The translations under genes were made by a program, and so were the position numbers. Positions 1,095 to 19,074 of a DNA stretch of 21,022 bases are shown here, piece by piece. The stretch comes from a virus (taxonomy: Duplodnaviria; Heunggongvirae; Uroviricota; Caudoviricetes; Schitoviridae). Every line of letters begins with the position of its first letter. Position 1 is the first letter of the stretch. Where the stretch lies: the IMG/VR virus record IMGVR_UViG_3300024257_000004; one strand, 5' to 3'. The notes beneath the pieces were generated by a model, which did no database searches, was not told the origin of the DNA, and saw only the letters and a program-made list of their open reading frames with translations.

Positions 1095-1096
1095 AC

Positions 1097-2884
1097 ATGA
1101 AGGATCCACAAACTAACCTGATGCAGAATGCTGTATCAGGGTACTTAACCTCACTCGGATTCAAAAGAAAGTTCCTCAGACTATGGGGAACTAAAACCAT
1201 TGATGGAGTAGAAGTACTCAACGATAGAAAATACTGGTATCCGAAAACACACCTAGAGACTAACGAAAAGTTATTCAGACTACTGAAGCAATACAAAAGC
1301 CTCAGCGAGGAAAACCCAGAAGGAATAACTAGTGCATGGCTAAGTATAAATCCAGATAAGATTACTGTATCACACGATGGGTCTCTGACAGCTAGTGAAA
1401 ATACATTACTAGACGAGAACATGGTTCAGGTAATAAATCACACACTAGATATAAATGAAGATTATGAATTCATAATTACAATCAAATCAGATCAATATCC
1501 AGCATTAGCTACTAGACCAGATGATGAATCAAACGCAGATATGATGACTAGAATATCGGAAGAATTACACACTAATTATGAGAATGTATTTGAGAGCTGT
1601 CAGGTAGATGGGGATGACGATACACTAGAAAGTAGATTGATAAGTAAGTACGTGTTGTTTGATGATGCCGATACGTTCGAGGTAATAATTACTGGAGTTG
1701 ATGAGGTAGCAACTACATTGTTGTATCCAAGTGGAACCACTAGGACTTGGGACAATTCAACTCCGGGTACATATATAGTAATATCGCATGCAGTAACGAT
1801 GAAAGTAATCAGGCGTAGTACTATATATAATACTAATAATATAATACTAAAGATGCTTGCTGCCAGTAATGCTAGAAATACAGCAGATTTACTAATAGTA
1901 CAAAATGCTTGGGTATTCGGAGACTTGCCAACTACTAATGATTTCTTCTACAAAGGATGCCTGCGAGCAAGTCTGTTTAGTACTAGTATGCTAAAGACAG
2001 CAGATTGCAATAGCTTGATTTCCGAAGTAATGGATAGTGGGTATAAAAAAAAGAAAGTTAAATGGTGGAAGAAGTTACTATTGATAATTATCATGGTTAT
2101 AATAGTAATTGTTGCATGTGCATATACTGGACCACAAGGATGTACTGCAGCTATGTCTCTAGCTGATGCCGCATTCGTTGCTACAGTAGTCGCAGTATCA
2201 ATGGCAGGATTATCGATGGCAATGCAAGCTTGGGGAGACGATACCGGAGCTGGGTTTGCAGCGAAGATGAGTAGTGTTGCTAGTAAGATATCGGCAGTAC
2301 TGGGCATAGCAAGTATCATTAGCAATATCATGTCCTCGATAACACAAGAAAGCCTGAGGCAAGAAGCTATCAAGGAAATAAGTCAAGAGGCATTAGCCGA
2401 GATGGGTACAGAACTTGCTGAGAGTACTATACAAGAAACAATGAAAGTAATGACAGGTCGAATGACTATATCAGGTGCATATGAAGCTGCCAAGAAATTG
2501 GTGACGAATATGATTAGTAAGACAACCGAGATTAGTTTACAAAATTTCTTCAAAATAGTAGATATAGGTTCGGGTATATACAGAAAAAATGAGCAGAAAG
2601 CCTACGACAAAAAAGTTAGCAGTGTGCAAGCAGAGATTGATGAACTAAAGGGAGAAGAGGACTTAACCGAGGCCCAAAGAATCAGTAATATACTTAATGA
2701 TATGGACCAACTCAGGGTTGCCCCTATCAACTCAGATCAAAGCAAGTACAACATAGATAAATTCTGCGAACCTGTAAAGGGTACATATACGCAAGGTAAA
2801 TTCGTATTAGGTCATCTAGGAACAGTAGGGAAAACAGTGAAAACTCCAATCAAAGTAGACACGTCAATGATTAAGTTCAGCTAA
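1097..2884 (+). CDS. Membrane-segment-containing virion/assembly protein, putative N4 gp53 counterpart (595 aa)
   Basis: Starts 2 nt after the previous stop. Basic stretch KKKKVKWWKK is followed by hydrophobic LLLIIIMVIIVIVACAY and two further hydrophobic Ala/Gly-rich helices. Position matches N4 gp53. Confidence 0.6.
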   Translation: MKDPQTNLMQNAVSGYLTSLGFKRKFLRLWGTKTIDGVEVLNDRKYWYPKTHLETNEKLFRLLKQYKSLSEENPEGITSAWLSINPDKITVSHDGSLTASENTLLDENMVQVINHTLDINEDYEFIITIKSDQYPALATRPDDESNADMMTRISEELHTNYENVFESCQVDGDDDTLESRLISKYVLFDDADTFEVIITGVDEVATTLLYPSGTTRTWDNSTPGTYIVISHAVTMKVIRRSTIYNTNNIILKMLAASNARNTADLLIVQNAWVFGDLPTTNDFFYKGCLRASLFSTSMLKTADCNSLISEVMDSGYKKKKVKWWKKLLLIIIMVIIVIVACAYTGPQGCTAAMSLADAAFVATVVAVSMAGLSMAMQAWGDDTGAGFAAKMSSVASKISAVLGIASIISNIMSSITQESLRQEAIKEISQEALAEMGTELAESTIQETMKVMTGRMTISGAYEAAKKLVTNMISKTTEISLQNFFKIVDIGSGIYRKNEQKAYDKKVSSVQAEIDELKGEEDLTEAQRISNILNDMDQLRVAPINSDQSKYNIDKFCEPVKGTYTQGKFVLGHLGTVGKTVKTPIKVDTSMIKFS

Positions 2885-2893
2885 AAGTTAGTA

Positions 2894-2927
2894 CTAAGCT
2901 AGTATTAGATGAAGTATAGTATAAAAT
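2894..2927 (+). promoter_or_regulatory. Putative promoter (CTAAGC-N22-TAAAAT)
   Basis: CTAAGC 2894-2899, TATAGT 2915-2920, TAAAAT 2922-2927 in an AT-rich spacer with stops in all three forward frames. Confidence 0.35.
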
Positions 2928-2933
2928 AAATAT

Positions 2934-2949
2934 ACCTAATCGATTAGGT
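2934..2949. repeat. Perfect 16-bp palindrome ACCTAATCGATTAGGT
   Basis: ACCTAATC (2934-2941) is the reverse complement of GATTAGGT (2942-2949). It lies just 5' of an AAGGA at 2955-2959. Confidence 0.9.
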
Positions 2950-2956
2950 GATATAA

Positions 2957-3136
2957 GGATACAAGACAGAGCAGTATGGTTACAAGTTGGGAAATTCCGT
3001 ATTTGGCGATACTGGCCCACAGCTAAATGACCCTGTAGCTAGTTTTTCTGGGATAAACTTTGGTTCTGCAGATACTCCGTATGAGCCTGATAAGTACGCA
3101 TACTCATTGGGAAATATTCTTAGAGGTCATATTTAG
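2957..3136 (+). CDS. Unannotated small ORF (59 sense codons; 49 aa if TTG 2987 is the start)
   Basis: Stop-free frame GYKTEQYGYKLGNSVFGDTGPQLNDPVASFSGINFGSADTPYEPDKYAYSLGNILRGHI* fills the gap between two promoter-like spacers. No ATG in frame; start unresolved. Confidence 0.45.
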   Translation, partial: GYKTEQYGYKLGNSVFGDTGPQLNDPVASFSGINFGSADTPYEPDKYAYSLGNILRGHI

Positions 3137-3138
3137 AA

Positions 3139-3176
3139 TTAAGCTAACCTCAAGGATAGTTTAGATAGGATATAAG
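3139..3176 (+). promoter_or_regulatory. Putative promoter (TTAAGC-N21-TAGGAT; TATAAG nearby)
   Basis: TTAAGC 3139-3144, TAGGAT 3166-3171, TATAAG 3171-3176; AAGGA RBS 7 nt before ATG 3202. Confidence 0.35.
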
Positions 3177-3201
3177 AAAATAGGTATATAAGGAAAGTGT
3201 T

Positions 3202-3660
3202 ATGGAAACTACAGGAACTGGGTTAGGCTTACCCTACTTAACAAAAGATAACCAAGCGGTATTTGACTTTTCCGCTATTGGCGGTACAAACGCTGTTTTA
3301 GCGAACGATAAGTACAATCAGCAGCTGAATCTACTAGAATCTGGGAAGATAGGCCAATCTACGTTTGACAATAACATCGGTATGTTAAATAAAGGTATTC
3401 AAGATGACTATCGAAACGGTATAGATTTTGGCAATACGTCTACGCCGGGGACTACTGGCGACGGGTTATTCGGCATAGGAACTAAAGACCAATGGACTAC
3501 AGGTTTAGGTGCTGCTAACTTAGGTATGAGTTTAGCTATGATGCCTGGTCAAATGAGTTACATGAAGAAGCAAGGGCAATTACTTGATCAACAGTTAGAT
3601 GCTAATAGAGAAGCTGTAGCTAGAAAGAAAAGTATCGAATCTGCATTTAGAGGAGCATAA
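3202..3660 (+). CDS. Small ejection (internal virion) protein, putative N4 gp52 counterpart (152 aa)
   Basis: Gly/Asn-rich N-half, hydrophobic GLGAANLGMSLAMM helix, then Q-rich coiled-coil end; no Cys. About 150 aa and two genes upstream of the vRNAP, as for N4 gp52. Confidence 0.65.
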   Translation: METTGTGLGLPYLTKDNQAVFDFSAIGGTNAVLANDKYNQQLNLLESGKIGQSTFDNNIGMLNKGIQDDYRNGIDFGNTSTPGTTGDGLFGIGTKDQWTTGLGAANLGMSLAMMPGQMSYMKKQGQLLDQQLDANREAVARKKSIESAFRGA

Positions 3661-3663
3661 ACT

Positions 3664-4860
3664 ATGAGTAAATACTTGAAATTCAGTAGTCCTGGTCAAC
3701 TTATGGATCCTACTGCGGCAGTTAGGGGTAGTTTATCGGACTTACAGGCTACGCTAATAGGTCAACAAGAACGTGATGATAAATTAGCAAAGGAAGCTGA
3801 AGCAAAACGAAGATGGGAAGCGTCGTACGGGTTGCAGAAAGCTACTGCAGGTAGGCAAGCTAAAGAGTTCACTGACGCACAGACAGCTAAGGCGCATCAA
3901 CTAGGTTTATCGCAAGCTATGAGTGGTATAGCCACGTCCGGTGATGTAGTAACAAATCAAAAAGCCATAGACGCAGCTAATGCATTTAACTTAGGTTTAA
4001 ATAAAGCTAATACAGAAGGTGAAGCCGCTTACGACAAAAGGATGAAGGACTTAGGTGATAAGATAAGCACAGCACTACTACCTACTACCCCAACTAAAAC
4101 TTCAGGATCTGGTATTTCGTATACTACGGAAGATGTAAAAGGTACTCAGTACGAAAAATACAAAGACCCTAAGACAGGTAAACGTTATTTACTGGATCCT
4201 AGCAGCCCTCTTGGTGAAATGGTCTACGGAGCACCTGAAGAAAGCGGTACCGTAGTATTAGATCCTATAGAGGTTAAGAAGAAAGCTCCTTCGGACTCAG
4301 AGATTGCTGACGCTATACTGAAAAGTAGTGGAGTAACTAAAGGTATGGAAGACACAGCATTAGCTGGATTCATTAAAGCTAAAGAACAAGCTGTACCTAC
4401 TGCTAAAACAGAAAGAAAACTTAGAACTGATAGTGACGAGTACAAAGCTGAAGTAGCTGATTCAATCAGAAACTACATGAAACAACATCCTGAATCTGCT
4501 ATTGAAGGTATGGCTGCACTTAATGCTATGAAAGATGCTGAATTTAAGTATGCCCCAGAACTACAGCTATCTAGGGATAAAGCTGCGTTAAAGAAGATAG
4601 CTGACATAGAAGATCACGAAAGAAAAATGATAAGAATAAAAGCTCAACAGGACAAAAGTAAAGGCGCTAACGCGTCAACTAAAATAAGTCAAATAATAGG
4701 TCAATCGGGTAACCCAGAGGACATCAAAAGTGTAATTGAGAAGTGGAAAGCTAGTGATAATAAAATTTCAGATAAGACTATACTTAACAGGTTATACGAA
4801 CTTGGCGCATCAGATATGAAAGAACTAGGCTGGTTTGACTTCGGTAAAAAAGATTTATAG
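3664..4860 (+). CDS. Ejection (internal virion) protein, putative N4 gp51 counterpart (398 aa)
   Basis: Ala/Lys/Glu-rich helical protein with no Cys, directly upstream of the vRNAP gene. No lysozyme/SLT motif recognised. Confidence 0.6.
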   Translation: MSKYLKFSSPGQLMDPTAAVRGSLSDLQATLIGQQERDDKLAKEAEAKRRWEASYGLQKATAGRQAKEFTDAQTAKAHQLGLSQAMSGIATSGDVVTNQKAIDAANAFNLGLNKANTEGEAAYDKRMKDLGDKISTALLPTTPTKTSGSGISYTTEDVKGTQYEKYKDPKTGKRYLLDPSSPLGEMVYGAPEESGTVVLDPIEVKKKAPSDSEIADAILKSSGVTKGMEDTALAGFIKAKEQAVPTAKTERKLRTDSDEYKAEVADSIRNYMKQHPESAIEGMAALNAMKDAEFKYAPELQLSRDKAALKKIADIEDHERKMIRIKAQQDKSKGANASTKISQIIGQSGNPEDIKSVIEKWKASDNKISDKTILNRLYELGASDMKELGWFDFGKKDL

Positions 4861-4949: not shown

Positions 4950-7900
4950 ATGACTACAGAAGAATTTTCAAAACTTACAGGGCAATACGTAGCCGGTAAT
5001 GTAAGTAGAATGGATACTAAATCAGCCGAAAAGAAAGCTAGACTACAACAAAAACATGATCAATCGTTATACGGTGTAACAGCTCAAGACGGTCAGTATT
5101 GGGATGATGCAGATTCGTCATCAGACTACAGACTACAAGGTGCTGATGCTCCTGAAATATACCATGAAATGACTCCTACTGGAGATACAAAAAATGTACG
5201 AAGTAAAGTATACCAACAAGTTGCTTACGAAAATCAAATACCGTTAGAAGACGCTGTAAGGATAGTAGACCAACAAGCAGAAGCTAGGGCTATTGACCAA
5301 GAGTACAGACAATCTCCACAATTCCAAATAGATAAACTAAATAATCCCAATGATCCATACTACCAAAGTCAAACACTAGGTGAAGGTATTGGACTTACAG
5401 GTAGAAACACCGGTGGATTAACGTCATTCGACGTATACCATGCTGGTGATGTAGCTACTAAAGCCGGTAGAGAAGATATACAAGCTGCTGACTGGGAAAA
5501 GTATAAAACAGGAGAAAAGGGCTACTTCGGTAGAGAACTACTGAATAATCCAGAGTATGTAAATAAGATGATTAGTGAAGGGTATATGGTACCGGGAGAA
5601 GCTGATGATCCAGTAGAATATGCTAAACAAAAAGAACTATACGATGTAGCAAAAGAGCAAAAGTTAGGTTTACACGGGCATGAGACAGTAGATCCAAGAG
5701 TAGCTCAAGCTATGCAGCAGACTAGTTACGCATACAGTAAAAGCCCTGAAGCAAAAGCCGAAAGAGCTAAACAAGCTGGTATTGAATACCAAAAAGCTAC
5801 ACAAGGTTGGCTTGAAGGTGCGGCTAAAGCTGCAGGTACAGGATTTGTAAAAGAATTAGCTGTAGACTTAGCTGATTGGGTTGGTGATACTACTAATATG
5901 TACGACATAGGTACTGAAGAAGAAAAAACTGAAATGGTTAATAAACTATTCAATTACGTTCCCGCTACTAGCCAAGAGACAGTTCAGCAAGTAGAAGGAC
6001 TGAATAACATCGCATGGGATAGTAACCAAGATATAACTACTAGACTAGCTGCTATAGGTAAATCGATAACACTAGCTGCCCAAGACGGAGAGATGCTAGG
6101 TAGTTCACTAGGTGTGTTAGCTGCATGGTTAATTCCAGGTATGGCACTTACTAAAGGCCACAAAGTCGGTAAAGTTATGACTAAGATAGATAAAGGCGTA
6201 GACGCAGGTAAACTATCACGAACTAAAGCGGCTGGTATGAAAACTAAGAAATTATTAGGTACTAAAGAAGGTGTCGGATATGGACTTAGACAACAATCAG
6301 GTATGATTACTGGTGCACTGGGTAATATAAATGACCAATATGAGACATTCGTAGAAAACAACAATGGAGTTGAACTACAAGGTGCAGACAAAGCTGAATG
6401 GTTTGCTAGATCGTTCGGTGTACAAATGTTCAATCAGAACTTAGATGCAATTACTGCGGTAAGTATTATGAAGTCTCCAGGAATGTTGCAAGCAGCTAAA
6501 CAAAGTATTAAAGACGTAAGTGAAAAAGCATTCGGTAAAGCCATAGTAGGTATGAGTGTTGGAGTCGGTAAAGCAATTGCTCAAATGCCTAAAGAAGCGG
6601 CTCAAGAGTATACTCAGGGTATGATGGAACTATATAATGAAAGATTCGGAGCTGAAGAGTTCAAAGATACGGATACATTTACTAAGTTCATCACTAATCC
6701 TGAATTCGCCAAAGAGAAGACAGTTGATGCACTACTAGGTGCCGGTGGATCACTACAATTCAGCGCTATGGGTGCTATTAGCCAGGCTTCAGGTAAAACT
6801 AAAGATGTTGTAACTGAAACTATGAAGTCTGAAAAAGATAAGTTAGTTGAAGTTGAAAAGGCTGAAGCTAAAGCTCAAGACAAAACTACAACTATGGCTA
6901 ATATTAAACTTCATAATGATACCTACACTAAAGCTATAAGCGATAACGATGTAACTAAAGCTTATAGTACTATACAAGCAATGGAAGCTGAAGTTAACAA
7001 ACTTGCAGTAAACGATGAGAAATCTGCAACAGCCCTGAAAACTATGCTAAACAGTAAGAAGGCTGAGATTAAAACTAAGATCCAAGAGCAGGTTAAGGCT
7101 GAGAAAAGTATGTCAAACAAAGAACTTGTTGCTCTTGGCGCTGGAATAGAAGATAAAAAGGCATTCCTACAAGCAACAGTGGACTCTAGTGATATAGCTA
7201 CGGATGAAGCGTTCATCAAACGAAAAGGTAAAGCATTAGGTGTAGCGCCTCATACTGTAGACAATATGATAGAGCAAGCTAAAGCGTTTAGTCACATGGA
7301 TAAAAGCTCCGATGAAGTTAAAGGATTTAAAGCTAAAATCGATAAAATTAAAAGTTACAAGGCTGCCGGCTATGTTGACCAAGCTCAAGCTGAAACTAGA
7401 GAACTTGAGATGCTATTTGGTAAACACGAAGAAAAAAGCGACGAGTTATCTGCCGGACTTACTGAGTTAGAGCAAAAAATTGATAAAGCTGTAAAACAGG
7501 GTATACCAAACACACTAAAAGGTAAAGAGTGGTCTGCTGAGTACTCTAAGAGGTTAACTGAAAAGTTAGAATTACCTCAGAAGAAAGTAATACATCACAA
7601 AGACGGTACTAATACGGAAGTAACTTATAAAGAAGTAGTTAATAAGTTATTACACAAGTACTCGCAAAGAGATATGAAAGATAAAACTACATTCTCAGAA
7701 GGTGCTTATGGTGATCAACAAAGTTACGAAAACGCTAAAAAAGGTATAAGAAGAGTTGCTGCGATTAATAATATCAAACTAAGTACAATAGCTGGGAAAA
7801 AAGATTCAGCTAAAATCAAAGAACTAAGAACGAAAGCTAAATCTACAGACGCTGAAAAGGAAGAGTTAAAGTCACTACGTAAGCATTCAACATTAGATAC

Positions 7901-10900
7901 TTACAATATCGATCAAGAAGCTATAACGGACTTAAAAAAGAAAATTGCCAGAGAAGAGAAGAAACTTAAAACTATTACTTACGTAAAAGACAATGGTCCT
8001 AAAGCAGAAAAAAGTAAGAGGTACTATATCAAGTGGGAAAAAGGTAAGGGTAGTTACTCTAGTGTAGACAAGAAAGCTGAACATACTAAAAAGATTAAAG
8101 CACTTAAAGATGAAATTGGTAGTTATGGTATTTCTAGTAGAAGCAGAGATAAAGGTGATGTAGAAGCTCTGTTAGGCAAAGTCGATTCAGACATCGCTAA
8201 AAGTACTAATGCGATAGCTAAGCTTGAGATTTCAATCGCCAAAGCTGAAAAAGCTCTGGAGGACGAGGACTACTCCGATATTGAAAAAGACTTGGTTAAC
8301 GATGATATCAAACTAGAACAAGGTGCAATAACTAAACAGAAAGCTCACATTAGTGAAGTTAAAGCCGCTCAAGCTAAAGTACTAGAAGGTAGGCTAGACT
8401 ACAACGAAATGACAGAATTAGATGCCGCTATGGTAGAAGGTATGATGCATTCTCCGAAAGTAGAGGCACAAGAACACTATGCTATATTCAAAGAATACGG
8501 AATTCACATGGGAGAAGACGTAAACGCTAATGAAGCACTAGAATCACTGAATAAAGCTGTAAATGACTCATTGAATGAAAGTAAAGACGCACTTAAAGAC
8601 TTAATTGGCGTAGAGAGTACTGAGAGTAAATTTACTAAATTAGAAGAAGGATTAAAAAAGGTAGACTTAGGTAAGAAACTGCAAAGCATTCACGATTCTA
8701 CTAAAGAGTTAGAGGTACTACGGTATGACTTAAGTACTACTACCGGTGAAAAAGCTAAAGCTGCTCTAGAGGCTAAGATTGACGCTGCTGCTAAGAAGAT
8801 TGAGGATACTAAAGCAGAGATTCAGAACACAGCTAATACTGAATCCATGTTGGATAATAGCTACGGTAAGTCGTTACTATCTGACGAAAAATTCGCTAGA
8901 AGAGTGACACAAACTGTTAAAAACATGAAAAAAGACGATGGTGACTACAGTTTCATGAATGCTGATCCAGACACGTACTTACAGACTGACGCAAAAAATG
9001 TATCTATGTCAATGTCGATTGATTTAGATGCAGAAGAAAACGCAGCGTTAAAAGACTACTCAGTTAAAAAGGCGGATAAGCTATTTAAAGAGATAAAAAC
9101 TAACGATTCTACAAGTACTGCAGCAGCTGTAGTGTCAAATAGTCAAGCATTTATATTCTTAAAAGATCCAGCTACTGACTTAATTATTAGCAAGGATGCA
9201 GATGGTAATCATAGCATAAACCCGAATGTAGCACTAACACTGAGTTTAGTAGGTGATGAGTTTATGAAGACAAGAGCTTCAGAGCTTATATTCAATACTT
9301 GGGAAGATACCAAGAATATTTGGGGTATGCCTGAAGGTACATCGTATAACTCGAAAGCTCATAGGATAACTAAGAGTGCCGGCGCTAACCTATCATTCGT
9401 GGCTAACGAGTTAGGTACTCAAGCTAGAAAGGCTCTAGGTATCAAGTTTAAAGAAGACGCTACTGAAGAAATGGTAGCAATGTTCGATGGATCGTTAGGG
9501 TATAAAGTACTACAAATGCAGATGGCAGAAGGTAGAATTAAACGACACACAGGTAAGGACAAAAATGCTACATCAGTAATTAAAGCTGAAGATGTTGCAA
9601 CCGCTATGAAAACATTTATGCCTGGAACTGCCGTTAAACAAACTCAAAACAGAATGATGGTTCAATTATCAGATAAAATGGTGAAAGATAATGGGTTAAA
9701 AAAACTACAAGGTAACCAAGAAATGGAAGCCCTGTTAGATACATTCGGTGCTAAACACAACGAAAAAGGCCCAAGATTTTCCCCAAGAACTACTAAAGAG
9801 CGTGAAAATAGGACGTTAGAGGCTAGAAGAACTCACGTAGTTAAGGATAACATAGGAGATAAAACAGTTACAGCGGTAGATAAACATGAGAATCTGGAAT
9901 ATAACCTAGATACAGAAGCTATCGACAAACTTATCCAACTAGAAGAAACTAATAAAAAAGCATTCAACGCAAGACTTGGTATTGTTGATTTAACACTACC
10001 GGAGTGGGCTGACGATAAGACATTAGATTCAGTAGATTCTCAAGATGCTGTAAATACAGAGAAACTGCGGGCTTGGGAAGACATAAAAGCATTAAGAGAA
10101 TCAATGAAAGGCAATAATGCTAAACCTAATACGCTGTACTTCAACTGGTTTATGGCTAAATCTGGAAGACTATTTATAGATTCAAATACCATTAACCCTC
10201 AAACTGAAAAACAAATCCAAAGATGGTTAATTACGGCTAAAGAACAAGAAGCAGAAATTGATATCAACAATGATAAGCAAGAAATGGAAGTGTTTAAAGT
10301 AGCTATATCACAAGGGCTAGGTATTGATATTGATAAGCAGGGGTACGAGAATTCTATAAAAGATGGTACAAAAATACTAAGTATGTCAGAAGAAGAACTT
10401 AATATTGCTGAAAAAACTATAATGAACGAAGGTAAGTACACTACTAAAGCGGGGTTAGTTATTAAATCAGAACATTTAGGCCATACAGTTGCTACACTAA
10501 ATAACATTAGAAAGTATAAAAATGCGAAAAATGGTAAATTCACTACTAACCAAGTACTAGAGCTGGATGGTATTACGAATGGGCTTATAGCTAAGTTACT
10601 ACAGATACCGTTAGCTGATATTAATAAAACTATAAAACACCTACGAAGAGGTGGAATTGTTATCGGAGTTACTGAGAAAATTGGATACTTAGACTACGTT
10701 GAGAATAAAGATGAAAAAGATTCATACCAAAATGTATCAGGGCAGTTAAAAGAGCCTAGCTACGAAGACTGGACAAAGCGAATGCCGAAACGGCTATTTA
10801 ATTCTATGACAGCTCTTATGCCTAAAATATTTAGTGAAGAAGACGCTAGTGAGATCACTAAAGAAGGTAGAGATATCGCTAAAGACCCTACTATGCACTT

Positions 10901-12689
10901 CCAGTTCGGAGCTACGCTTAGGTCAATTAAAGCTAATGTTGGTAATAAGATGTCGGATGGTTTTGCGGATAAAATGCTAGAAGCTGCTAACAGAATCGCT
11001 AATGGTAAAGATGTTACAGACTACCCTGCAGCGGACTTAGTTAAAGTATTAGCTTATCACACAGAAAAAAAGGACGCTAAAGTATTTGCCGCAAACTTAG
11101 CTAAACTACTAAAGACTAAAAGTTATGAAGAAATCTCATTTGCTACGCTTGGTATTAAGACATCAGAAGAGAACAAAGCTGGGCATATTACTACGACTAA
11201 GCCGACGTTACAACGTTACTTTAAAGAGTTTACAGAAGCTACGTACGGTGAGCAAGTTGCTGGTGTACTAAAAAATGAATTTGGTGATCTTGTTGAATCG
11301 AATAGAATTATCACTAATAATACAAAAACCCAGTACGCAGGGTTCAAGATAATACTAGAAGATAATATCGCACGAATAGAAGAAAACCAAGGTAAACCTA
11401 TTAGTTTAGCGCAAGAACGAGAACTGCTACAAGAGTTAGCTGATGCATTCCCTACAGTTGAGTCGCCATTTGGTGGGTTAATCGAGTTTATAGATAATAA
11501 ACTACAAAAGTCGGATGAAGCTAGTAAACTATCAATTCAAGCTGCAGTTAACAACAAAAAGTACAAAGGTAAATCTGACAGTAAGTCTAGTGTAACTCTG
11601 CAGATAGTCCTAAGAGATATAGAAGCCGCAGTTAGTTCTGGGGCTGTACTGCCAATTCACTTCACAGATGCTAGTGTTATGGCAGAAGTAATGAATGACT
11701 ACGGATTTACAGAAGTACATGATGCAAAAGTATTAGGAATTACTCAAGCAGTAGGAGCAACTAAAGCTTACAATAAGGGATTCATAGATATTGCAGCAAA
11801 CTACAACTTGTTAGAGAAATACCATGACTCGTTAGTTAAAACAATGAGTATGATGACTCAAGGTCAGATAGATAGAGTTAACGCTATGTTCGCCGCAAGT
11901 CAAACAGCTACGGAAAAAGAAGCTAACCCTAGAAAGAAGTACACGCCAACTAGGTTTAGTACGGATCAAGTACAAGAGTACAACGAAGCACTGGAAGAGG
12001 CAGGAATTAATCCAGAGAGTATACCAGACGTGGCTGAATTTAATAGACTAACAATGGAAGAGATACTAGAGCAAGGGCTGGAATACGCTAACGAAATTAC
12101 AAAAAGAAAACAAGAATTATTTGATAATGTAATACACGCTTCACAGATACCCCTAAATAAAGACTCTATAATGTCGTACAAAAAAGGTGACATAAAGGTT
12201 AACACGTGGGAAAACGGTCCTGCTGTGTTTAGTGTACTAGAAAATCCGGTAGAAATAGAACTACAAACAGAAATTCTAGAGACAAAAGCTGAAGTAACTG
12301 CGGATACGGTAGAAAGATGGACTAAACAAGCTAGAAAACACTTAGTTGATAACTCAGATTTATACCCGGTACTGTATAACTTAAAAACGGATGTAGTTAC
12401 AGGTGGTATCGATACAATATACGATAATATAGCAAGAACAATAGGTAAAGACTTAAGAGAATCGGCTACACAGGATATACTATTTGAAGGGATACTTGAA
12501 CCTAAGTTATCTGAAAAAGAAAGAACAGATGTAGTTAATGAAATAAGAGATCTTAGAAAGGCTATACACGACAGCAGAACTCCTAAAGGCAATACTCAGG
12601 AAGAAAGCGGTACAATCGATGCAGAAATGACAGGTGAGGAATTCACAGATGAAGAGAATGAGGTTTGTAATGATGGGGGAATTTGTTAA
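4950..12689 (+). CDS. N4-like virion-encapsidated RNA polymerase, N-terminal plus polymerase part (2579 aa)
   Basis: Single-subunit RNAP motifs in order: SGRLFIDSNTINPQ (R1740, nt 10167); motif A ELDGITNG (D1873, nt 10566; N4 DGVTNG); motif B RDIAKDPTMHFQFG (R1974/K1978; N4 RGIAKNPLTITIYG); LPIHFTDAS; motif C EVHDA (D2258, nt 11721). Long Cys-free N-terminal region with amphipathic and coiled-coil segments. Confidence 0.93.
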   Translation: MTTEEFSKLTGQYVAGNVSRMDTKSAEKKARLQQKHDQSLYGVTAQDGQYWDDADSSSDYRLQGADAPEIYHEMTPTGDTKNVRSKVYQQVAYENQIPLEDAVRIVDQQAEARAIDQEYRQSPQFQIDKLNNPNDPYYQSQTLGEGIGLTGRNTGGLTSFDVYHAGDVATKAGREDIQAADWEKYKTGEKGYFGRELLNNPEYVNKMISEGYMVPGEADDPVEYAKQKELYDVAKEQKLGLHGHETVDPRVAQAMQQTSYAYSKSPEAKAERAKQAGIEYQKATQGWLEGAAKAAGTGFVKELAVDLADWVGDTTNMYDIGTEEEKTEMVNKLFNYVPATSQETVQQVEGLNNIAWDSNQDITTRLAAIGKSITLAAQDGEMLGSSLGVLAAWLIPGMALTKGHKVGKVMTKIDKGVDAGKLSRTKAAGMKTKKLLGTKEGVGYGLRQQSGMITGALGNINDQYETFVENNNGVELQGADKAEWFARSFGVQMFNQNLDAITAVSIMKSPGMLQAAKQSIKDVSEKAFGKAIVGMSVGVGKAIAQMPKEAAQEYTQGMMELYNERFGAEEFKDTDTFTKFITNPEFAKEKTVDALLGAGGSLQFSAMGAISQASGKTKDVVTETMKSEKDKLVEVEKAEAKAQDKTTTMANIKLHNDTYTKAISDNDVTKAYSTIQAMEAEVNKLAVNDEKSATALKTMLNSKKAEIKTKIQEQVKAEKSMSNKELVALGAGIEDKKAFLQATVDSSDIATDEAFIKRKGKALGVAPHTVDNMIEQAKAFSHMDKSSDEVKGFKAKIDKIKSYKAAGYVDQAQAETRELEMLFGKHEEKSDELSAGLTELEQKIDKAVKQGIPNTLKGKEWSAEYSKRLTEKLELPQKKVIHHKDGTNTEVTYKEVVNKLLHKYSQRDMKDKTTFSEGAYGDQQSYENAKKGIRRVAAINNIKLSTIAGKKDSAKIKELRTKAKSTDAEKEELKSLRKHSTLDTYNIDQEAITDLKKKIAREEKKLKTITYVKDNGPKAEKSKRYYIKWEKGKGSYSSVDKKAEHTKKIKALKDEIGSYGISSRSRDKGDVEALLGKVDSDIAKSTNAIAKLEISIAKAEKALEDEDYSDIEKDLVNDDIKLEQGAITKQKAHISEVKAAQAKVLEGRLDYNEMTELDAAMVEGMMHSPKVEAQEHYAIFKEYGIHMGEDVNANEALESLNKAVNDSLNESKDALKDLIGVESTESKFTKLEEGLKKVDLGKKLQSIHDSTKELEVLRYDLSTTTGEKAKAALEAKIDAAAKKIEDTKAEIQNTANTESMLDNSYGKSLLSDEKFARRVTQTVKNMKKDDGDYSFMNADPDTYLQTDAKNVSMSMSIDLDAEENAALKDYSVKKADKLFKEIKTNDSTSTAAAVVSNSQAFIFLKDPATDLIISKDADGNHSINPNVALTLSLVGDEFMKTRASELIFNTWEDTKNIWGMPEGTSYNSKAHRITKSAGANLSFVANELGTQARKALGIKFKEDATEEMVAMFDGSLGYKVLQMQMAEGRIKRHTGKDKNATSVIKAEDVATAMKTFMPGTAVKQTQNRMMVQLSDKMVKDNGLKKLQGNQEMEALLDTFGAKHNEKGPRFSPRTTKERENRTLEARRTHVVKDNIGDKTVTAVDKHENLEYNLDTEAIDKLIQLEETNKKAFNARLGIVDLTLPEWADDKTLDSVDSQDAVNTEKLRAWEDIKALRESMKGNNAKPNTLYFNWFMAKSGRLFIDSNTINPQTEKQIQRWLITAKEQEAEIDINNDKQEMEVFKVAISQGLGIDIDKQGYENSIKDGTKILSMSEEELNIAEKTIMNEGKYTTKAGLVIKSEHLGHTVATLNNIRKYKNAKNGKFTTNQVLELDGITNGLIAKLLQIPLADINKTIKHLRRGGIVIGVTEKIGYLDYVENKDEKDSYQNVSGQLKEPSYEDWTKRMPKRLFNSMTALMPKIFSEEDASEITKEGRDIAKDPTMHFQFGATLRSIKANVGNKMSDGFADKMLEAANRIANGKDVTDYPAADLVKVLAYHTEKKDAKVFAANLAKLLKTKSYEEISFATLGIKTSEENKAGHITTTKPTLQRYFKEFTEATYGEQVAGVLKNEFGDLVESNRIITNNTKTQYAGFKIILEDNIARIEENQGKPISLAQERELLQELADAFPTVESPFGGLIEFIDNKLQKSDEASKLSIQAAVNNKKYKGKSDSKSSVTLQIVLRDIEAAVSSGAVLPIHFTDASVMAEVMNDYGFTEVHDAKVLGITQAVGATKAYNKGFIDIAANYNLLEKYHDSLVKTMSMMTQGQIDRVNAMFAASQTATEKEANPRKKYTPTRFSTDQVQEYNEALEEAGINPESIPDVAEFNRLTMEEILEQGLEYANEITKRKQELFDNVIHASQIPLNKDSIMSYKKGDIKVNTWENGPAVFSVLENPVEIELQTEILETKAEVTADTVERWTKQARKHLVDNSDLYPVLYNLKTDVVTGGIDTIYDNIARTIGKDLRESATQDILFEGILEPKLSEKERTDVVNEIRDLRKAIHDSRTPKGNTQEESGTIDAEMTGEEFTDEENEVCNDGGIC

Positions 12690-15600
12690 ATGATATGTCC
12701 AGTTAAAGGTATAAAGTTATCAATCAGAGACGTGATTGATAACGAAAAGAGCGTACAGAAAGCTAGAAATGTCATAACTAAACGAATTGACTTATTCTGG
12801 AGTGATTATGAAAAAACATCAGATAAGACTTACACCGCGGAAGCTGTAAGCACGTGGAAAAAAGAACAGTTCGACCTACTAATAAAAAAGAAGGGTATAG
12901 CCCCTCTTCCTAGTGAAAATTTGACTAAATACTCTATTGGGGATAGAAGAGTCAGAGCCAGTAAAACAGGTAAAACTGATAACACAGCTAGTATACTAAT
13001 GGTAGATAAGAATACTGACGGTACTATGAGCTTACTGACAATGACACACAAAACGGGAAAACTGACTAAAGTAGACTTAGATAGTAACTACAATAGCCCT
13101 AAAATGGATTATGATAAACAAGTAATTGACGGTATATACCAAACGGTCAGCAGCAAAGTTAAAGGAATCAGAAACCAACCTAATAAACAATTAGGTTCAG
13201 ATATTAGGGGTAAAGCCGCAGAACTAGAAGGCTATGCTCAAGAGTATGGTAATTTAACCAATGATCCAGAACAAGTTAAAGCCCTGGCAAAAGAACTAAA
13301 TAGAAAATCAGATGTGCAGGTTAGTGTGGAACATGAAGGTTGGTTAGTAGACGTAGTAGATATGTTTATTGGTAAAGACAAAAAGTTCTTACCGCAAAAT
13401 CTGCAAGTGTACCTTAATAAAAAAGGACCAAAGTCACTAGGTACGTTTGTCCCATACGCTGAAGAAAAAATCGGAGCAGGTATTTACATAACTGAAGGTA
13501 ACGAAGCTAGAGTTGCTGGTAACCAAATGGGGCCTATGGAGAAATACGTACATGAATTAATACATGGGGCTATGTACTATGGGCTAGAAAGTGGAGATCC
13601 TGAAGTTGCAGGGGCTAGAGAAAGGTTAGAAAAGCTATATCACAAAGTGGTTGATAAACTTGTATGGCAAGACTTGATGCCGAGCGGATCAGACTATGAC
13701 TATAAGGAAGAAAAGAAAATAGCAGTAGCTATGTTAAAACACATGAGGGAAACTGATGGTTTGCATGAGTTTATCACATACGGTCTGACAAATGAAAATA
13801 TGATTAAGAAGTTACAAACAGTAACTATGTATATAGATAAGTCCGTAAAAGCTAAGAATGTCTGGGAGGCACTTAGGTTTATGGCACAAGACTTAATTGA
13901 TATGATTATGAGTACTGTGCGAAAAGAAACAGTTAATACCACAGGGCATAAACTACTGATAAAATTAAGTATGGACATAGCTAAAGCTAATAATACGGCT
14001 GCTAAAACATATGCTACATTCACGATGGGGGAAAAAGCTGGGGAGTTTATTGATAAGCTGAATGGCGCAATTAATAACGTAACTGACAAGTTGAAAGAGA
14101 ACCAGTTAGACAAAGACTTGCCGAAGTTACCAGCAAACGCTACTAAGCTTGAAACAGCTAAGTGGTTAGCAGGCAACTTAAGTAAAATGGTAATGGATGA
14201 TAGAATGAGACCGCATTATGAAGCAGCACTTACAGCAGCTGGGCTAAAACCGGAAGGAATTACCCAACAGTTAATAAGAGCATTCAGTCAAGATGATAAC
14301 TTACAAAGAACTGTTGAGAGGCTTGGGTTACTGTCGATGGACATTGACGATAAACGATTCGCTATGGGGCAAGCTATAAGTTCAACAATTAGAAGTGCTT
14401 GGAAAGGCAAGCTAAGTAAGGCTGACAATGAATTAGTTACAGAAGTTTTACTGGATAATGATATTCAAGTTTTAGGTAATACAGGAAAAGGTATTAGTAA
14501 ATTATTCAGCAGTGATACTGAAGTAACTAAACAGATAGATAAGTACCGTAAAGTAATTATAGATAAAGCTGCCACTAAAGCAGACGCTAACTACTATTTA
14601 AATGAAGCAAAAGGACTGGCGAGATACTTATTAACACATAAAGCTAGTGAAATACAGCTACTGAATGCTAATAACATAGCACGGCAACTAGGTACAGCTA
14701 ATCAGGTAGATAAAGCTGATCCCGCTCTGGTAGAAGCTATTGACAAGTTAAGTTCATTAACGGCATTGAAGGATACAGATGCAGCTAAAAAAGATAGGAT
14801 TAAAGAACTGTTTGAGTCAGAGCCTGACGGTATACACACAGTACTGAACCTACATAAAGGGTTTGTAGCTGACACAAGAGAGAAGCTATTCTCTGATAAT
14901 GATATAAATTACATTAAAGGGTATACGAAAGAGATATTTGATGCTGATATAGATATTAAAGTAGCGAAAATTAGCGATAAGAAGGACATGATTGCGCAAG
15001 GGTACCAGTTTATAGCGCCACTAGTTAAATCAGAGTTGGATAATACTAGAGGGGAATTTGCTTTATATAGAAGTAACTTACACGCACTTCAAGGGTATAA
15101 TAAACAAGCGTTTAGAACTACCGATACTGCCGGAAAAGGTACTACTATTGCCGATATTCTGTATAAAACGAATTTAGATCCTAAGTTTGTTAAGATTAGA
15201 GAAAAAGCTATGATAGCTGAAATTAGCGGTAATGTGGAGACTGCTAGAAGTAAATGGTATGAAAGTGAATTTGACGAATTGCCGATAAGTAATATGGTAC
15301 CTGTGTATAACAAAGATGGTAAAGTTATCACATATAGGTACATGATGTCTAAAGCTGAGAAAAAGAATTTACTAGCTCAAGATACTAGGGCGAATTTGGT
15401 ATTAGGGCAGATGTACGCTAACAATATGGATAAGGTTTCTTCTGGGGAGATGAATAAAAAAGTAATTAATACAGTTCTTGAAGACATGGAAGATAACTAT
15501 ATTCCAGGTAAAACTTATGGTAAAAATGGTAAAGAGTACATCATGGTGGGTCCGGACGGCGTAGTTGATGACAAGTATAAAGAGATGTGGAGATTATTGC

Positions 15601-16757
15601 CTAGTGCAGCTAAACATAACTTAGAGCAGAAAGCTAAAGAACTATTAGAAGAAGATGAAACGTTTAAAGGTATTGCTGTACGGCGTGATTTAGTTAGGCA
15701 ATACTTCGGGGAAAGGGATTTTTCTATTGGAGATACTAGGCTTATGGGATTAAGCCCTAAAGTGATAAGACAAGCCGTAGTGTTAGCCGAACGAATATGG
15801 AAGAGTATAGTAGGTATAGCTAAAGCTAATATCGTAATTAAAACTCCGGCTGTACTGTTTGGTAATATTATAAGTAACTTGGTACTTAGTGTACAATTAG
15901 GTATGGATCCGTTGAGTGTACTAAAATTACAGTGGAGTGGGCTAAAAGACTTACAAGCCTACAAGAAAACTGAGGGTAAGTTAAATGAACTGGCTATTAA
16001 GATTAGTAGTAATAAGGCTCAAGGTAAGCCGTATAAAGCACTCGAAGCACAAGTTAAAGTGTATAAGAAAGAGTTAAATAGGAATCCTGCTCACGTATTA
16101 ATCAAAGAAGGGTTATTTAGTTCAATAGTAGAAGATGTTAACCCTGAAGATAGACGATCAAATGACCCTGTTGGTAGATGGATAGATAAGAAAACTGAAA
16201 ATTGGCCTGAAGTGGTTAAGCAGGGTACGAATTATCTGTATCTTACTGAAAGAACTGCTCCGTACCAAATGATGCTTACGGCTACGCAATATAGTGATTT
16301 TATTGCTAGATATGGGTTATACCACGGTACAAAAAAGAAACAAGAGCGTGCGATTGAAAGCAAGCATGGTAGAAAAACTACTCCTGCTGAAAGAAAAAAG
16401 CTTGAAGATAGTACATTAGAGTTAGTAACGAATGCGTTTATTAACTATAATACACTAGATAACAAGTATGTTAAATACGCGAATGACATGGGGTTAGTAA
16501 TGTTTACTAAATTCTTTGTCGGTATTCAGCAAGTACTTAAAAAAGGTTTAGCTGATAAGCCTGTTAATTTCATACTCGCGATGTTAGGACAAGTATTGTT
16601 ATTTGACGTTGAAGATATTACTGAACATTCAGTAATAACTAAAAACTATGAGGCAATACTTCATAACCCGTTAGAAATTATGCGAGAAGTGTATACTCCT
16701 TCGTCTATCGAGTTACTAAGCGTGCCTCATGATGTTATACAGAAACTAGCTGCATAA
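12690..16757 (+). CDS. Separately encoded C-terminal part of the N4-like vRNAP, with zincin-like HExxH motif (1355 aa)
   Basis: Starts at the base after the upstream TAA, same frame, with GGGGGA 9 nt upstream. YVHELIH (H288/E289/H292, nt 13551-13565) and HEFITYGLTN (E360) resemble the HELIH...EFMAWALTN segment I recall from the N4-type vRNAP C-terminal domain. Combined length 3934 aa versus about 3500 for N4 vRNAP. Confidence 0.8.
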   Translation: MICPVKGIKLSIRDVIDNEKSVQKARNVITKRIDLFWSDYEKTSDKTYTAEAVSTWKKEQFDLLIKKKGIAPLPSENLTKYSIGDRRVRASKTGKTDNTASILMVDKNTDGTMSLLTMTHKTGKLTKVDLDSNYNSPKMDYDKQVIDGIYQTVSSKVKGIRNQPNKQLGSDIRGKAAELEGYAQEYGNLTNDPEQVKALAKELNRKSDVQVSVEHEGWLVDVVDMFIGKDKKFLPQNLQVYLNKKGPKSLGTFVPYAEEKIGAGIYITEGNEARVAGNQMGPMEKYVHELIHGAMYYGLESGDPEVAGARERLEKLYHKVVDKLVWQDLMPSGSDYDYKEEKKIAVAMLKHMRETDGLHEFITYGLTNENMIKKLQTVTMYIDKSVKAKNVWEALRFMAQDLIDMIMSTVRKETVNTTGHKLLIKLSMDIAKANNTAAKTYATFTMGEKAGEFIDKLNGAINNVTDKLKENQLDKDLPKLPANATKLETAKWLAGNLSKMVMDDRMRPHYEAALTAAGLKPEGITQQLIRAFSQDDNLQRTVERLGLLSMDIDDKRFAMGQAISSTIRSAWKGKLSKADNELVTEVLLDNDIQVLGNTGKGISKLFSSDTEVTKQIDKYRKVIIDKAATKADANYYLNEAKGLARYLLTHKASEIQLLNANNIARQLGTANQVDKADPALVEAIDKLSSLTALKDTDAAKKDRIKELFESEPDGIHTVLNLHKGFVADTREKLFSDNDINYIKGYTKEIFDADIDIKVAKISDKKDMIAQGYQFIAPLVKSELDNTRGEFALYRSNLHALQGYNKQAFRTTDTAGKGTTIADILYKTNLDPKFVKIREKAMIAEISGNVETARSKWYESEFDELPISNMVPVYNKDGKVITYRYMMSKAEKKNLLAQDTRANLVLGQMYANNMDKVSSGEMNKKVINTVLEDMEDNYIPGKTYGKNGKEYIMVGPDGVVDDKYKEMWRLLPSAAKHNLEQKAKELLEEDETFKGIAVRRDLVRQYFGERDFSIGDTRLMGLSPKVIRQAVVLAERIWKSIVGIAKANIVIKTPAVLFGNIISNLVLSVQLGMDPLSVLKLQWSGLKDLQAYKKTEGKLNELAIKISSNKAQGKPYKALEAQVKVYKKELNRNPAHVLIKEGLFSSIVEDVNPEDRRSNDPVGRWIDKKTENWPEVVKQGTNYLYLTERTAPYQMMLTATQYSDFIARYGLYHGTKKKQERAIESKHGRKTTPAERKKLEDSTLELVTNAFINYNTLDNKYVKYANDMGLVMFTKFFVGIQQVLKKGLADKPVNFILAMLGQVLLFDVEDITEHSVITKNYEAILHNPLEIMREVYTPSSIELLSVPHDVIQKLAA

Positions 16758-16900: not shown

Positions 16901-17128
16901 TTACCACCAGCCAAAAAATTGACCTAAACCGTGGAACCAGCCTACAGGTGGTACAAGAGCTCCAGCTATAAGAAGTAAATACTTCTCAGTTTGAAAACAG
17001 TACACTAGGTGGTTAATAAATGGTGCTACTAGCAGTATAATACCCGCTATAACGCTTAGTATACCAACCACACCCTTATACGTGTACTTAAAATCAGACC
17101 ATTTACGTTTAATAGTTTCTCTAGTCAT
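16901..17128 (-). CDS. Small two-helix membrane protein (75 aa), function unknown
   Basis: Hydrophobic GVVGILSVIAGIILLVAPFI and YLLLIAGALVPPVGWFHG; start overlaps the upstream stop (TAATG at 17126-17130). Confidence 0.7.
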   Translation of the reverse strand: MTRETIKRKWSDFKYTYKGVVGILSVIAGIILLVAPFINHLVYCFQTEKYLLLIAGALVPPVGWFHGLGQFFGWW

Positions 17129-17454
17129 TATTTGCTACTAGTCTGTTCTTTTTCGAATAATTTCTGTCTAAGAAGATAACCTTCTAGCATCCATATCTTG
17201 TCTTTAGCATTAGTAAAAGCAATACCTTCACCAATTTCTTGGTCAAAGTTAGCTGGACTAGCGCATGCAGATTCACCTGTTACAGTGAAACCATTTACAA
17301 GGGTAACGCAACAAACAGTTAATATCCCATTAAATACGTGGTATTCAATTGATTTGATAGCGTTATCAATGTCGGCTGGAGACAGTCTAGGGGCATTAAG
17401 TCCCTTCCGTTGGATTAGACATTCAACTTCTTGGTCGTTTAGTGATTTAGCCAT
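17128..17454 (-). CDS. N4 gp49/Sf6 gp66-family protein (PF13876), candidate Acb4-type cyclic-nucleotide sponge (108 aa)
   Basis: LTVCCVTLVNGFTVTGESACASPANFDQEIGEGIAFTNAKDKIWMLEGYLLRQKL fits the family pattern NGFtVtGeSaC.spenFd.eiG..iA..nA..kiW.lEGYlL. Lies near the vRNAP on the opposite strand, as N4 gp49 does. Confidence 0.8.
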   Translation of the reverse strand: MAKSLNDQEVECLIQRKGLNAPRLSPADIDNAIKSIEYHVFNGILTVCCVTLVNGFTVTGESACASPANFDQEIGEGIAFTNAKDKIWMLEGYLLRQKLFEKEQTSSK

Positions 17455-17960
17455 TATGACCTCCTGTCTAGTATTGCTTGTAATTTAGGTTCAGGTGCAT
17501 ATAGAGACTCCCAATCTGCAGGTTTAGTAATCTTACCTTGCGAGTCTTTATTATTTCCCTTCATTTCATTAGCTGTATGAACTACTTGTAGTCCCTCAAC
17601 AATGTGCTCAGGAGTTAGTCCAAGCTTGTGTAGAGAACCAATGGCGAAGTAAAGCTGATCAAGATGTTTGTCAAATCTATCTACATCAGGGATATTTATA
17701 GGTACCTGCAATGCTCCTGACTCTGGCAATGAACATGAATTGATAATCAATCTAGACCATTCCTTTGCTGAAGTTTCTCCATTGAAGTCTGACCTAATTG
17801 AATTCTGTAAATCATATAGGTCGAACCCCTCGAGTGCTTCCTCAATAGGATATGCTGATTCGGTTGCATCATCATACGATCCGCGTGGGTATCCCCATAC
17901 AACTTCATTTAGCTTACAAATACCTTCGATTAATTCGAAGGCTTGCTTTTTATGCGTCAT
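17454..17960 (-). CDS. MazG-like / PRA-PH-like all-alpha nucleoside triphosphate pyrophosphohydrolase (168 aa)
   Basis: IEEALE, DKHLDQLYFAIGSLHKLG, VVHTANEMK and GKITKP match the EE..E / D..D..Y..G / V..sN.sK / GK..KP layout of DR2231-type MazG-like proteins. Confidence 0.7.
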   Translation of the reverse strand: MTHKKQAFELIEGICKLNEVVWGYPRGSYDDATESAYPIEEALEGFDLYDLQNSIRSDFNGETSAKEWSRLIINSCSLPESGALQVPINIPDVDRFDKHLDQLYFAIGSLHKLGLTPEHIVEGLQVVHTANEMKGNNKDSQGKITKPADWESLYAPEPKLQAILDRRS

Positions 17961-17962
17961 AA

Positions 17963-18454
17963 CTAGTCCCTATGCGCCATAGCAGCTAATTGCTGCAGTA
18001 AGGCAGGAGATACTGCGTAGTTACCCTCGATGATATCTTCCAGTGATGACCTAAGTGCTTCCTCTGCTAACTCATCGATAGTTAATCGGTCTAAGTCTAG
18101 ATTATCAGGCTCAGCATCGTCTAACTGCTCTATGTGGTCTATAAGGGATTGCAGGTTAAAGCTGGCTTCTTGTTCCTCATAGTCGTCCTCATCAGAACCG
18201 ACTGCAGCGTCAACTAAGTCCTCAACAGCTTCATCCACTAGTTGCTTACAGCAGTTGAATAGGTTATCACCTTCTTCTGGTACACCTTCAGTTATTACGT
18301 CACCATTGTAGTAGACTGTAATACAAGGTTCAGTACCTTCTTGGTCTAAGTCAATAGCTAATTCTCCACCGTCTAACACTGCATTGTCGCATACTAAATC
18401 AACGTATGCTCTAATCGCTGGGAAGTTAGTATCAATTTGTGCTTGCGTAAACAT
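17963..18454 (-). CDS. Highly acidic hypothetical protein (163 aa), candidate DNA mimic
   Basis: By hand count 42 Asp/Glu versus 5 Lys/Arg. Start overlaps the HU stop (TAATG at 18452-18456). Confidence 0.7.
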   Translation of the reverse strand: MFTQAQIDTNFPAIRAYVDLVCDNAVLDGGELAIDLDQEGTEPCITVYYNGDVITEGVPEEGDNLFNCCKQLVDEAVEDLVDAAVGSDEDDYEEQEASFNLQSLIDHIEQLDDAEPDNLDLDRLTIDELAEEALRSSLEDIIEGNYAVSPALLQQLAAMAHRD

Positions 18455-18726
18455 TACGCTGTTACCGCTTGCTTAAATGCTGATGCTGCTTTGAATTTAG
18501 GTACTCGTTTCTCTTGAGATTCCCAAGCCTTACCGTTCATAGTTCCTGATTTAGCTGCTTGCACATGTGGGTAAAATTTACCTAATCCGCTGATAACTAC
18601 TTCGTTACCTTCTGCAACTTCACCTGTTACCGTTCCAATTAAACACTCAACTACTCTCGTAGCTGCTGCTTTTGATTCGATATCATCTAATTCCGCGATT
18701 CTGTTAATTAATTCTGCTTTATTCAT
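18454..18726 (-). CDS. hup: HU-family DNA-binding protein (90 aa)
   Basis: MNKAELI N-terminus, GNEVVISGLGKF, KRVPKFKAASAFKQAV; AAGGAG RBS at 18736-18741. The usual R-G-R-N-P arm reads KSGTMNGK here. Confidence 0.92.
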   Translation of the reverse strand: MNKAELINRIAELDDIESKAAATRVVECLIGTVTGEVAEGNEVVISGLGKFYPHVQAAKSGTMNGKAWESQEKRVPKFKAASAFKQAVTA

Positions 18727-18756
18727 ATTTATATTCTCCTTTGGGTTAATGATCCC

Positions 18757-18762
18757 ATTATA
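18757..18762 (-). promoter_or_regulatory. Consensus -10 box TATAAT upstream of HU
   Basis: The + strand ATTATA at 18757-18762 reads TATAAT on the - strand, 30 nt upstream of the HU ATG. No TTGACA -35, as is common in Campylobacterota. Confidence 0.5.
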
Positions 18763-18774
18763 TGACGACTTATT

Positions 18775-18843
18775 GCTCTTGCTCTCCTAGGGGCGTTACT
18801 ACTAGTGTCCACGGCGAAAAAGTGTGGAATATCGCACAAGAGC
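18775..18843 (-). other. Non-coding element foldable as a three-stem RNA structure
   Basis: GCTCTTG (18775-81) pairs with CAAGAGC (18837-43), enclosing CTAG/CTAG (18787-90, 18802-05) and TCCAC/GTGGA (18808-12, 18824-28). GC-richer than its flanks, no ORF. Confidence 0.35.
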
Positions 18844-18852
18844 GGTGTGTGA

Positions 18853-19053
18853 TTAAGCTCCAGCCATTAGTTGACCGTAAATCAACTTCTGGTTACAAGC
18901 TATATTTGTATATGCTATACCGGCAGCTGACGTATTAGTTACTTTAGTGTAGTAATTACCAACTCGTTGCGCTTTAGGTGTTTTATCGTTTGCGGCGATT
19001 ACGCCGTTTTCACTCCAAGCTCTTCTATTCATATATTCTGGTAGTGATCCCAT
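18853..19053 (-). CDS. Hypothetical protein (66 aa)
   Basis: AAAGGAG RBS before the ATG; fills the gap after thyX; no family recognised. Confidence 0.6.
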   Translation of the reverse strand: MGSLPEYMNRRAWSENGVIAANDKTPKAQRVGNYYTKVTNTSAAGIAYTNIACNQKLIYGQLMAGA

Positions 19054-19074
19054 ATTGTCTCCTTTATTTAGTTA

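Follow-up and report, generated by a model that had tools for sequence, protein, structure and literature searches.

A natural phenylalanine at the motif B sugar-discrimination position of a predicted, highly divergent N4-type virion RNA polymerase from a marine phage

Known T7-like and N4-type enzymes

T7 RNA polymerase (RNAP) is an 883-aa enzyme that recognises promoters in double-stranded DNA; it is not a virion component. The ring of its Y639 residue has a stacking role in the active site and closes the O-helix. The engineered variants T7 Y639F and N4 Y678F are standard tools for the production of 2′-modified RNA, and the Y678F variant of the N4 mini-vRNAP was reportedly found by Kazmierczak and co-workers in 2002 to lose discrimination. 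This loss in N4 is cited here second-hand, through PMC3715699. In T7, the Y639F substitution 'greatly reduces discrimination', yet discrimination 'is still substantial' (PMC4538805). Wild-type Syn5 RNAP, although it has the Tyr, is a poor discriminator (PMC4538805), implying that selectivity is a property of the whole site.

The virion RNA polymerase (vRNAP) of N4 is one chain of 3500 aa with a Tyr at this position, Y678F being engineered. The Pseudomonas phages LUZ7, LIT1/PEV2, Ab09, Littlefix and phCDa belong to the Schitoviridae (Migulavirinae, Littlefixvirus, Shizishanvirus) and encode N4-type vRNAPs as single chains of about 3400 aa. The occurrence of Phe in place of the motif B Tyr was already remarked upon in the legend of Fig. 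S2 of Ceyssens et al. 2010 (PMC3715699), and the Phe-type vRNAP of LUZ7 was shown to perform ordinary early transcription in vivo from N4-like hairpin promoters (PMC9163698). A literature search found no sugar-selectivity assay of any natural Phe-type vRNAP. Finally, a vRNAP layout in two ORFs has been published for the Alteromonas AD45 phages (PMC3821669).

Identity and fold of the polymerase

The window is the whole stretch of DNA that was analysed (21,022 nucleotides; IMG/VR record IMGVR_UViG_3300024257_000004), and all coordinates refer to it. The polymerase gene and the part of it that encodes the polymerase core are located as follows:

4950-12689, plus strand: ORF encoding the N-terminal domain and the polymerase core of the vRNAP (P0001), 2579 aa, from the ORF list and its translation
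9087-12329, plus strand: polymerase core, residues 1380-2460, with a predicted T7-like single-subunit RNAP fold (AF2, Foldseek, VIA-align)

In a PHROG profile search, residues 273-2406 of P0001 matched phrog_2206, 'virion RNA polymerase' (E 4.6e-67), and tblastn returned annotated vRNAPs of Alteromonas, Vibrio, Pseudomonas and Salmonella phages. The best cultured match was to the Alteromonas phages vB_AmaP_AD45-P1 to P4, which are 23.8% identical over residues 1300-2465 and, like the phage studied here, have marine hosts. The closest protein among 1.8 billion representatives is 35% identical to P0001, and 591 representatives match it at E values up to 0.001. Close relatives were sought in IMG/VR, where there were none, and among JGI metagenome contigs, where none was confirmed. 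A Pfam search of P0001 gave no match, the family being reached through PHROGs, profiles and fold only. When the core was searched with phmmer against PDB sequences, the only matches were to calmodulin and were rejected as spurious.

Modelling of residues 1380-2460 by AF2 from an alignment of 98 sequences reached a pLDDT of 87 and a pTM of 0.87; N4-like sequences were part of this input, which may help the model. A single-sequence AF2 model had a pLDDT of 34 and was discarded. The best structural match of the core model was the N4 gp50 mini-vRNAP (PDB 2PO4, 3C2P, 3C3L, 3C46, 3Q22), with a Foldseek E of 3e-25 and a VIA-align Z of 26.9 over 848 residues aligned to 3c46_A. T7 RNAP elongation complexes, which share the fold, gave Z values of about 21-23 (one 22.9), and mitochondrial RNAPs were also among the best solved structural matches. 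The N4 mini-vRNAP shares the T/DxxGR, A, B and C motif set with P0001 at an identity of about 14%. Profile matches and model together indicate that P0001 is a highly divergent N4-type virion RNA polymerase of a marine phage.

Active-site motifs and the position of F1986

The motifs expected of T7-like single-subunit RNAPs (T/DxxGR, A, B and C) are all present in P0001, in this order:

10158-10169, plus strand: T/DxxGR-type motif KSGR with R1740, invariant in 98 of 98 cores and paired with T7 WRGR by hhalign
10566-10568, plus strand: putative catalytic D1873 of motif A (LELDGITNG), invariant in 98 of 98 cores
10869-10910, plus strand: motif B / O-helix with R1974, K1978, M1982, F1986 and G1987, from the translation and alignments
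10905-10907, plus strand: TTC codon of F1986, the counterpart of T7 Y639 / N4 Y678
11658-11669, plus strand: H2237-F-T-D2240 (PIHFTD), putative counterpart of T7 H784...D787
11718-11723, plus strand: H2257-D2258 of motif C (EVHDA), with the putative catalytic Asp; D in 98 of 98 cores, H in 89 of 98

Motif B of P0001 reads RDIAKDPTMHFQFG (residues 1974-1987) and lies, colinear, between motif A and motif C. D1873 is aligned to N4 EADGVTNG and to T7 AFDGSCSG (D537), and H2257-D2258 corresponds to T7 IH811D812S. The catalytic Asp residues of motifs A and C, which the earlier note on this DNA had described as retained, are thus constant across all the cores compared. The column of H2237 holds His in 91 of the 98 aligned cores and that of D2240 holds Asp in all 98. 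T7 (NFVH784SQD787) has the identical H-x2-D spacing about 20-25 residues ahead of motif C, which agrees with the H784-like His that had been proposed in PIHFTD; this equivalence of H2237 and H784 rests on pattern and position, as the region is outside the reach of hhalign. P0001 has both active-site His, like T7, whereas N4 is without the H784-like His (TIGTGDG) and has F-D in motif C. N4 and its close relatives are odd at these two positions, H-x-x-D being found in 91 of the 98 cores, and the Phe-bearing Pseudomonas-phage clade keeps both His, as do P0001 and T7.

At the end of the O-helix, the Tyr expected in T7-like RNAPs is replaced in P0001 by a Phe, and the hydroxyl is absent. In a MAFFT alignment of 26 cores, RDIAKDPTMHFQFG is set against N4 RGIAKNPLTITIYG without a gap, and a profile comparison with N4 PDB chains gave the same motif B pairing. 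In addition, hhalign paired the motif gap-free with T7 RSVTKRSVMTLAYG, in an alignment (E 0.0043, with a low probability score of 7.9%) in which the T/DxxGR motif and motifs A and B are colinear. By this alignment, T7 R627, K631, M635, Y639 and G640 equal R1974, K1978, M1982, F1986 and G1987. The counterpart Tyr of N4, Y678 of the mini-vRNAP, has number 1675 in full-length gp50. In an HMM census of 169 homologues, the R and the K of motif B are invariant (169/169) and the residue at K+4 is a Met in 161. The gap-free alignment of F1986 to the N4 Tyr and the assignment of M1982 as the T7 M635 equivalent, both made in the earlier note, were therefore confirmed, and the former extends to T7. In the AF2 model, a helix spanning residues 1971-1985 is closed by F1986-G1987, as Y639-G640 close the O-helix of T7. 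Sequence alignments and model agree that F1986 is the true counterpart of T7 Y639 and N4 Y678. The pattern R-x3-K-x7-[YF]-G occurs a single time in P0001, where it is expected 0.03 times from composition and was found at least once in 2.9% of 5000 shuffles.

The TTC codon of F1986, reported previously with a recommendation that it be checked against sequencing data, follows from the translation and was unchanged in Logan contigs of four runs (X6, X10, X15 and X12); these are assembled contigs rather than raw reads, in which minor variants are invisible. There were zero differences at the codon across these contigs, which come from four seawater runs of four separate studies, one of them (X12) an RNA library. 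Because four independent runs give the identical codon, the Phe is no assembly or sequencing slip of the record and, within the limits of contig data, it is real in the population.

Positions 10400-11400 of the window were matched in 20 seawater runs from 20 studies (2018-2025), at 36-100% of the sampled 31-letter words, with one further run at 12%. Seven of the matching seawater runs are metatranscriptomic libraries. These matches point to a widespread marine phage with little variation in the vRNAP gene.

Distribution and origin of the Phe

The census of 169 homologues comprised the best 150 of 591 representatives at 50% identity, the matches of the first search and N4. The column at F1986 holds Tyr in 164 proteins, Phe in five and no other residue, which suggests that the ring is constrained or required while the hydroxyl is dispensable and was lost at least twice. 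All of the best 150 of the 591 relatives of P0001 keep the Tyr, among them its nearest relatives, P0147 (...PLMIFGYGG) and P0148 (...PLMHFSYAS). The other four Phe proteins of the census are canonical enzymes of 3400-3660 aa.

Among cultured phages, the motif was read directly, and found to carry Tyr, in 15 besides N4 (JWAlpha, Ea9-2, C121, RHph_Y38, VBP32, V17, SP-076, Pollock, VCO139, EE36phi1, 2.130.O, pVa5, pVco-5, AD45-P4 and T7). Thus the best cultured match, AD45, keeps the Tyr (RNLFKYPFMTFNYASS) where P0001 has Phe. The genomes of LUZ7, LIT1, Ab09, Littlefix and phCDa have Phe instead, in the motif ...PLTA[ML]MFGS. About 89 phage records share the motif B fragment of this Pseudomonas clade, out of about 377 that match the N4 fragment. 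The N4 core, used as a query, retrieved close N4 relatives only (at least 74% identity) and brought no gain for the census. A survey of motif B for an FG clade, which had been suggested in the earlier note, therefore did reveal one, in Pseudomonas Schitoviridae. The rarity of the Phe implied in the same note does not stand, since the residue is fixed in a large clade of cultured Schitoviridae with these five phages and has been in print since 2010 (PMC3715699).

Like P0001, the vRNAPs of the LUZ7/LIT1 group are N4-type enzymes with a natural Phe and with the R, the K and the catalytic Asp residues intact. They are about 20% identical to the P0001 core, and their O-helix has A/M beside the Phe (..PLTAMMFGS) where P0001 has H/Q. 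In a tree of 98 cores, made with FastTree only, from columns other than motif B and with long branches, the change between Y and F is needed at least twice. P0001 sits in a clade of four rows with 99% support whose remaining members carry Tyr, and the Phe of the LUZ7/LIT1 group falls on a separate evolutionary origin. The tree thus indicates that the Phe of P0001 arose independently of that of the Pseudomonas-phage clade. A natural Phe at this site was already known; the novelty lies in a second, independent origin of the Y-to-F change, which P0001 adds from a very distant, uncultured marine clade. Having two origins makes possible a comparative test of P0001, LUZ7 and N4 with Y/F swaps.

Functional interpretation

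The explanation that best joins these observations, and which is probably correct, is that P0001 acquired its Phe by an independent, natural Y-to-F change that is now fixed and is a working RNA polymerase with weaker discrimination of the 2′-OH. The earlier note's proposals that the enzyme may accept dNTPs or 2′-modified NTPs, make mixed transcripts or synthesise primers extrapolate from the engineered T7 and N4 mutants. P0001 would most likely still serve as the injected RNA polymerase of early genes. The NTP triphosphate would be bound by R1974 and K1978 and the metals by D1873 and D2258, and the ring of F1986 would go on stacking. The only loss would be that of the hydroxyl that hydrogen-bonds the 2′-OH, so that discrimination against 2′-deoxy and 2′-modified NTPs is probably lower, though not abolished, by analogy with T7 Y639F and N4 Y678F. 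Because cellular rNTPs greatly exceed dNTPs and other contacts such as H2237 remain, weaker discrimination would be tolerated in the cell. The present data show the identity of the residue, the homology, the independent origin and the precedent in functional phages; the reduced discrimination and its tolerance are inferred. As the Syn5 enzyme illustrates, selectivity is not set by the motif B residue alone, and the effect in P0001 could be smaller or larger.

A block of nucleotide-metabolism genes lies downstream of the vRNAP genes on the minus strand (17128-20972):

17128-17454, minus strand: phrog_322 protein (E 3.4e-49), function not assigned by the match
17454-17960, minus strand: MazG-like pyrophosphohydrolase
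19075-19785, minus strand: thymidylate synthase (ThyX-type)
20325-20972, minus strand: small subunit of ribonucleotide reductase (RNR)

Other readings of the Phe were considered. Because P0001 and N4 share only about 14-15% identity, and N4 is not reached directly by phmmer, it could be argued that another residue occupies the Y639 position, that TTC is erroneous or that the gene is decaying. Such an artefact has a probability close to nil, given that the R and K are invariant and their spacing gap-free under every alignment method, that the helix of the model stops at F1986, just as the O-helix stops at Y639, that the codon agrees across four independent assemblies and that the frame of 2579 codons is intact with all of the catalytic residues present. 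A different possibility is that H1983, Q1985 or H2237 takes over the contact with the 2′-OH, leaving selectivity as tight as in the Tyr enzymes. P0001 has T1981, H1983, Q1985 and F1986 where the clade consensus is F, T, N and Y, and H1983 stands one helical turn ahead of F1986, at a position where His is rare. However, in P0148 that same His accompanies a Tyr, which means that H1983 does not depend on the Phe; the corresponding residues of the Pseudomonas-phage Phe clade are Ala or Met. A scan for residues common to P0001 and the Phe clade and rare in the Tyr enzymes yielded nothing convincing near the active site, where the two Phe lineages have no convergent residue in common. Compensation of this kind is possible but unsupported, and we regard it as rather unlikely.

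It is also conceivable that the relaxed selectivity is adaptive, the Phe having been selected for the use of dNTPs or modified NTPs, for example in mixed RNA/DNA products or replication primers. This reading is consistent with the much reduced discrimination of the engineered Y-to-F enzymes of T7 and, as cited, of N4, with the fact that the Phe is unique relative to the best 150 relatives and stable over several seawater data sets, and with the nearby genes of dNTP metabolism (ThyX-type thymidylate synthase, RNR small subunit and MazG-like protein). The lone Phe among the best 150 relatives could indeed reflect lineage-specific selection rather than neutrality. On the other hand, the LUZ7/LIT1-type phages share a fixed Phe and their vRNAP behaves as an ordinary early RNA polymerase, the two Phe lineages have no convergent accompanying substitutions in common, genes of dNTP metabolism are common among N4-like phages regardless of whether they have Y or F, and the sequence bears no sign of a priming role. 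Taken together, these points make an adaptive origin improbable. A bolder proposal starts from the independent loss of the hydroxyl in two or more unrelated vRNAP lineages and holds that P0001 is a naturally optimised polymerase tolerant of 2′-modified NTPs on single-stranded templates; we consider it highly improbable. If it were true, loose sugar selectivity would be useful to injected early polymerases, for instance where the nucleotide pools of the host are skewed or modified, or because transcripts or primers containing dNMPs resist host RNases.

Under the preferred reading, in which P0001 is an RNA polymerase of probably weaker discrimination, no new mechanism is revealed, and published mention of the natural substitution goes back to 2010. 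The Phe of P0001 is natural where that of T7 Y639F is engineered. Natural Phe-type vRNAPs offer a natural test of the degree of ribose discrimination that an early phage polymerase requires. They have also had time to adjust to the lost hydroxyl, so they could be better scaffolds.

Gene organisation around the polymerase

The gene that follows that of P0001, and the matched genes that precede it, are:

12690-16757, plus strand: vRNAP C-terminal domain gene, 1355 aa, matching phrog_2206 positions 2333-3383 of 3406 (E 4.6e-167)
228-1094, upstream of the vRNAP: phrog_22937 match
1097-2884, upstream of the vRNAP: phrog_25216 match

The TAA of the 2579-aa gene abuts the ATG of the 1355-aa gene (12684-12692). 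Since the ORF at 12690-16757 matches the C-terminal third of phrog_2206, the vRNAP is encoded in two genes, of 2579 aa and 1355 aa, and not as a single giant polypeptide of about 3500 aa such as that of N4. The AD45 vRNAP likewise consists of a polymerase-bearing ORF followed by a C-terminal ORF (PMC3821669). The two abutting ORFs place the enzyme with these wider split-vRNAP relatives rather than with the canonical gp50 of the Schitoviridae. Most of the best 150 of the 591 homologues of P0001 are 2000-2900 aa long, which suggests that the split is a trait of the whole clade.

Upstream of the vRNAP, no PHROG match was obtained for the ORFs at 3202-3660 and 3664-4860. Judged by position, the genes at 228-4860 could be counterparts of the N4 ejection proteins gp51-gp53.

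A lack of Cys is often cited as a correlate of virion-packaged, injected N4-type vRNAPs. The sole two Cys of P0001, residues 2573 and 2579, are within its last seven residues (12666-12686).
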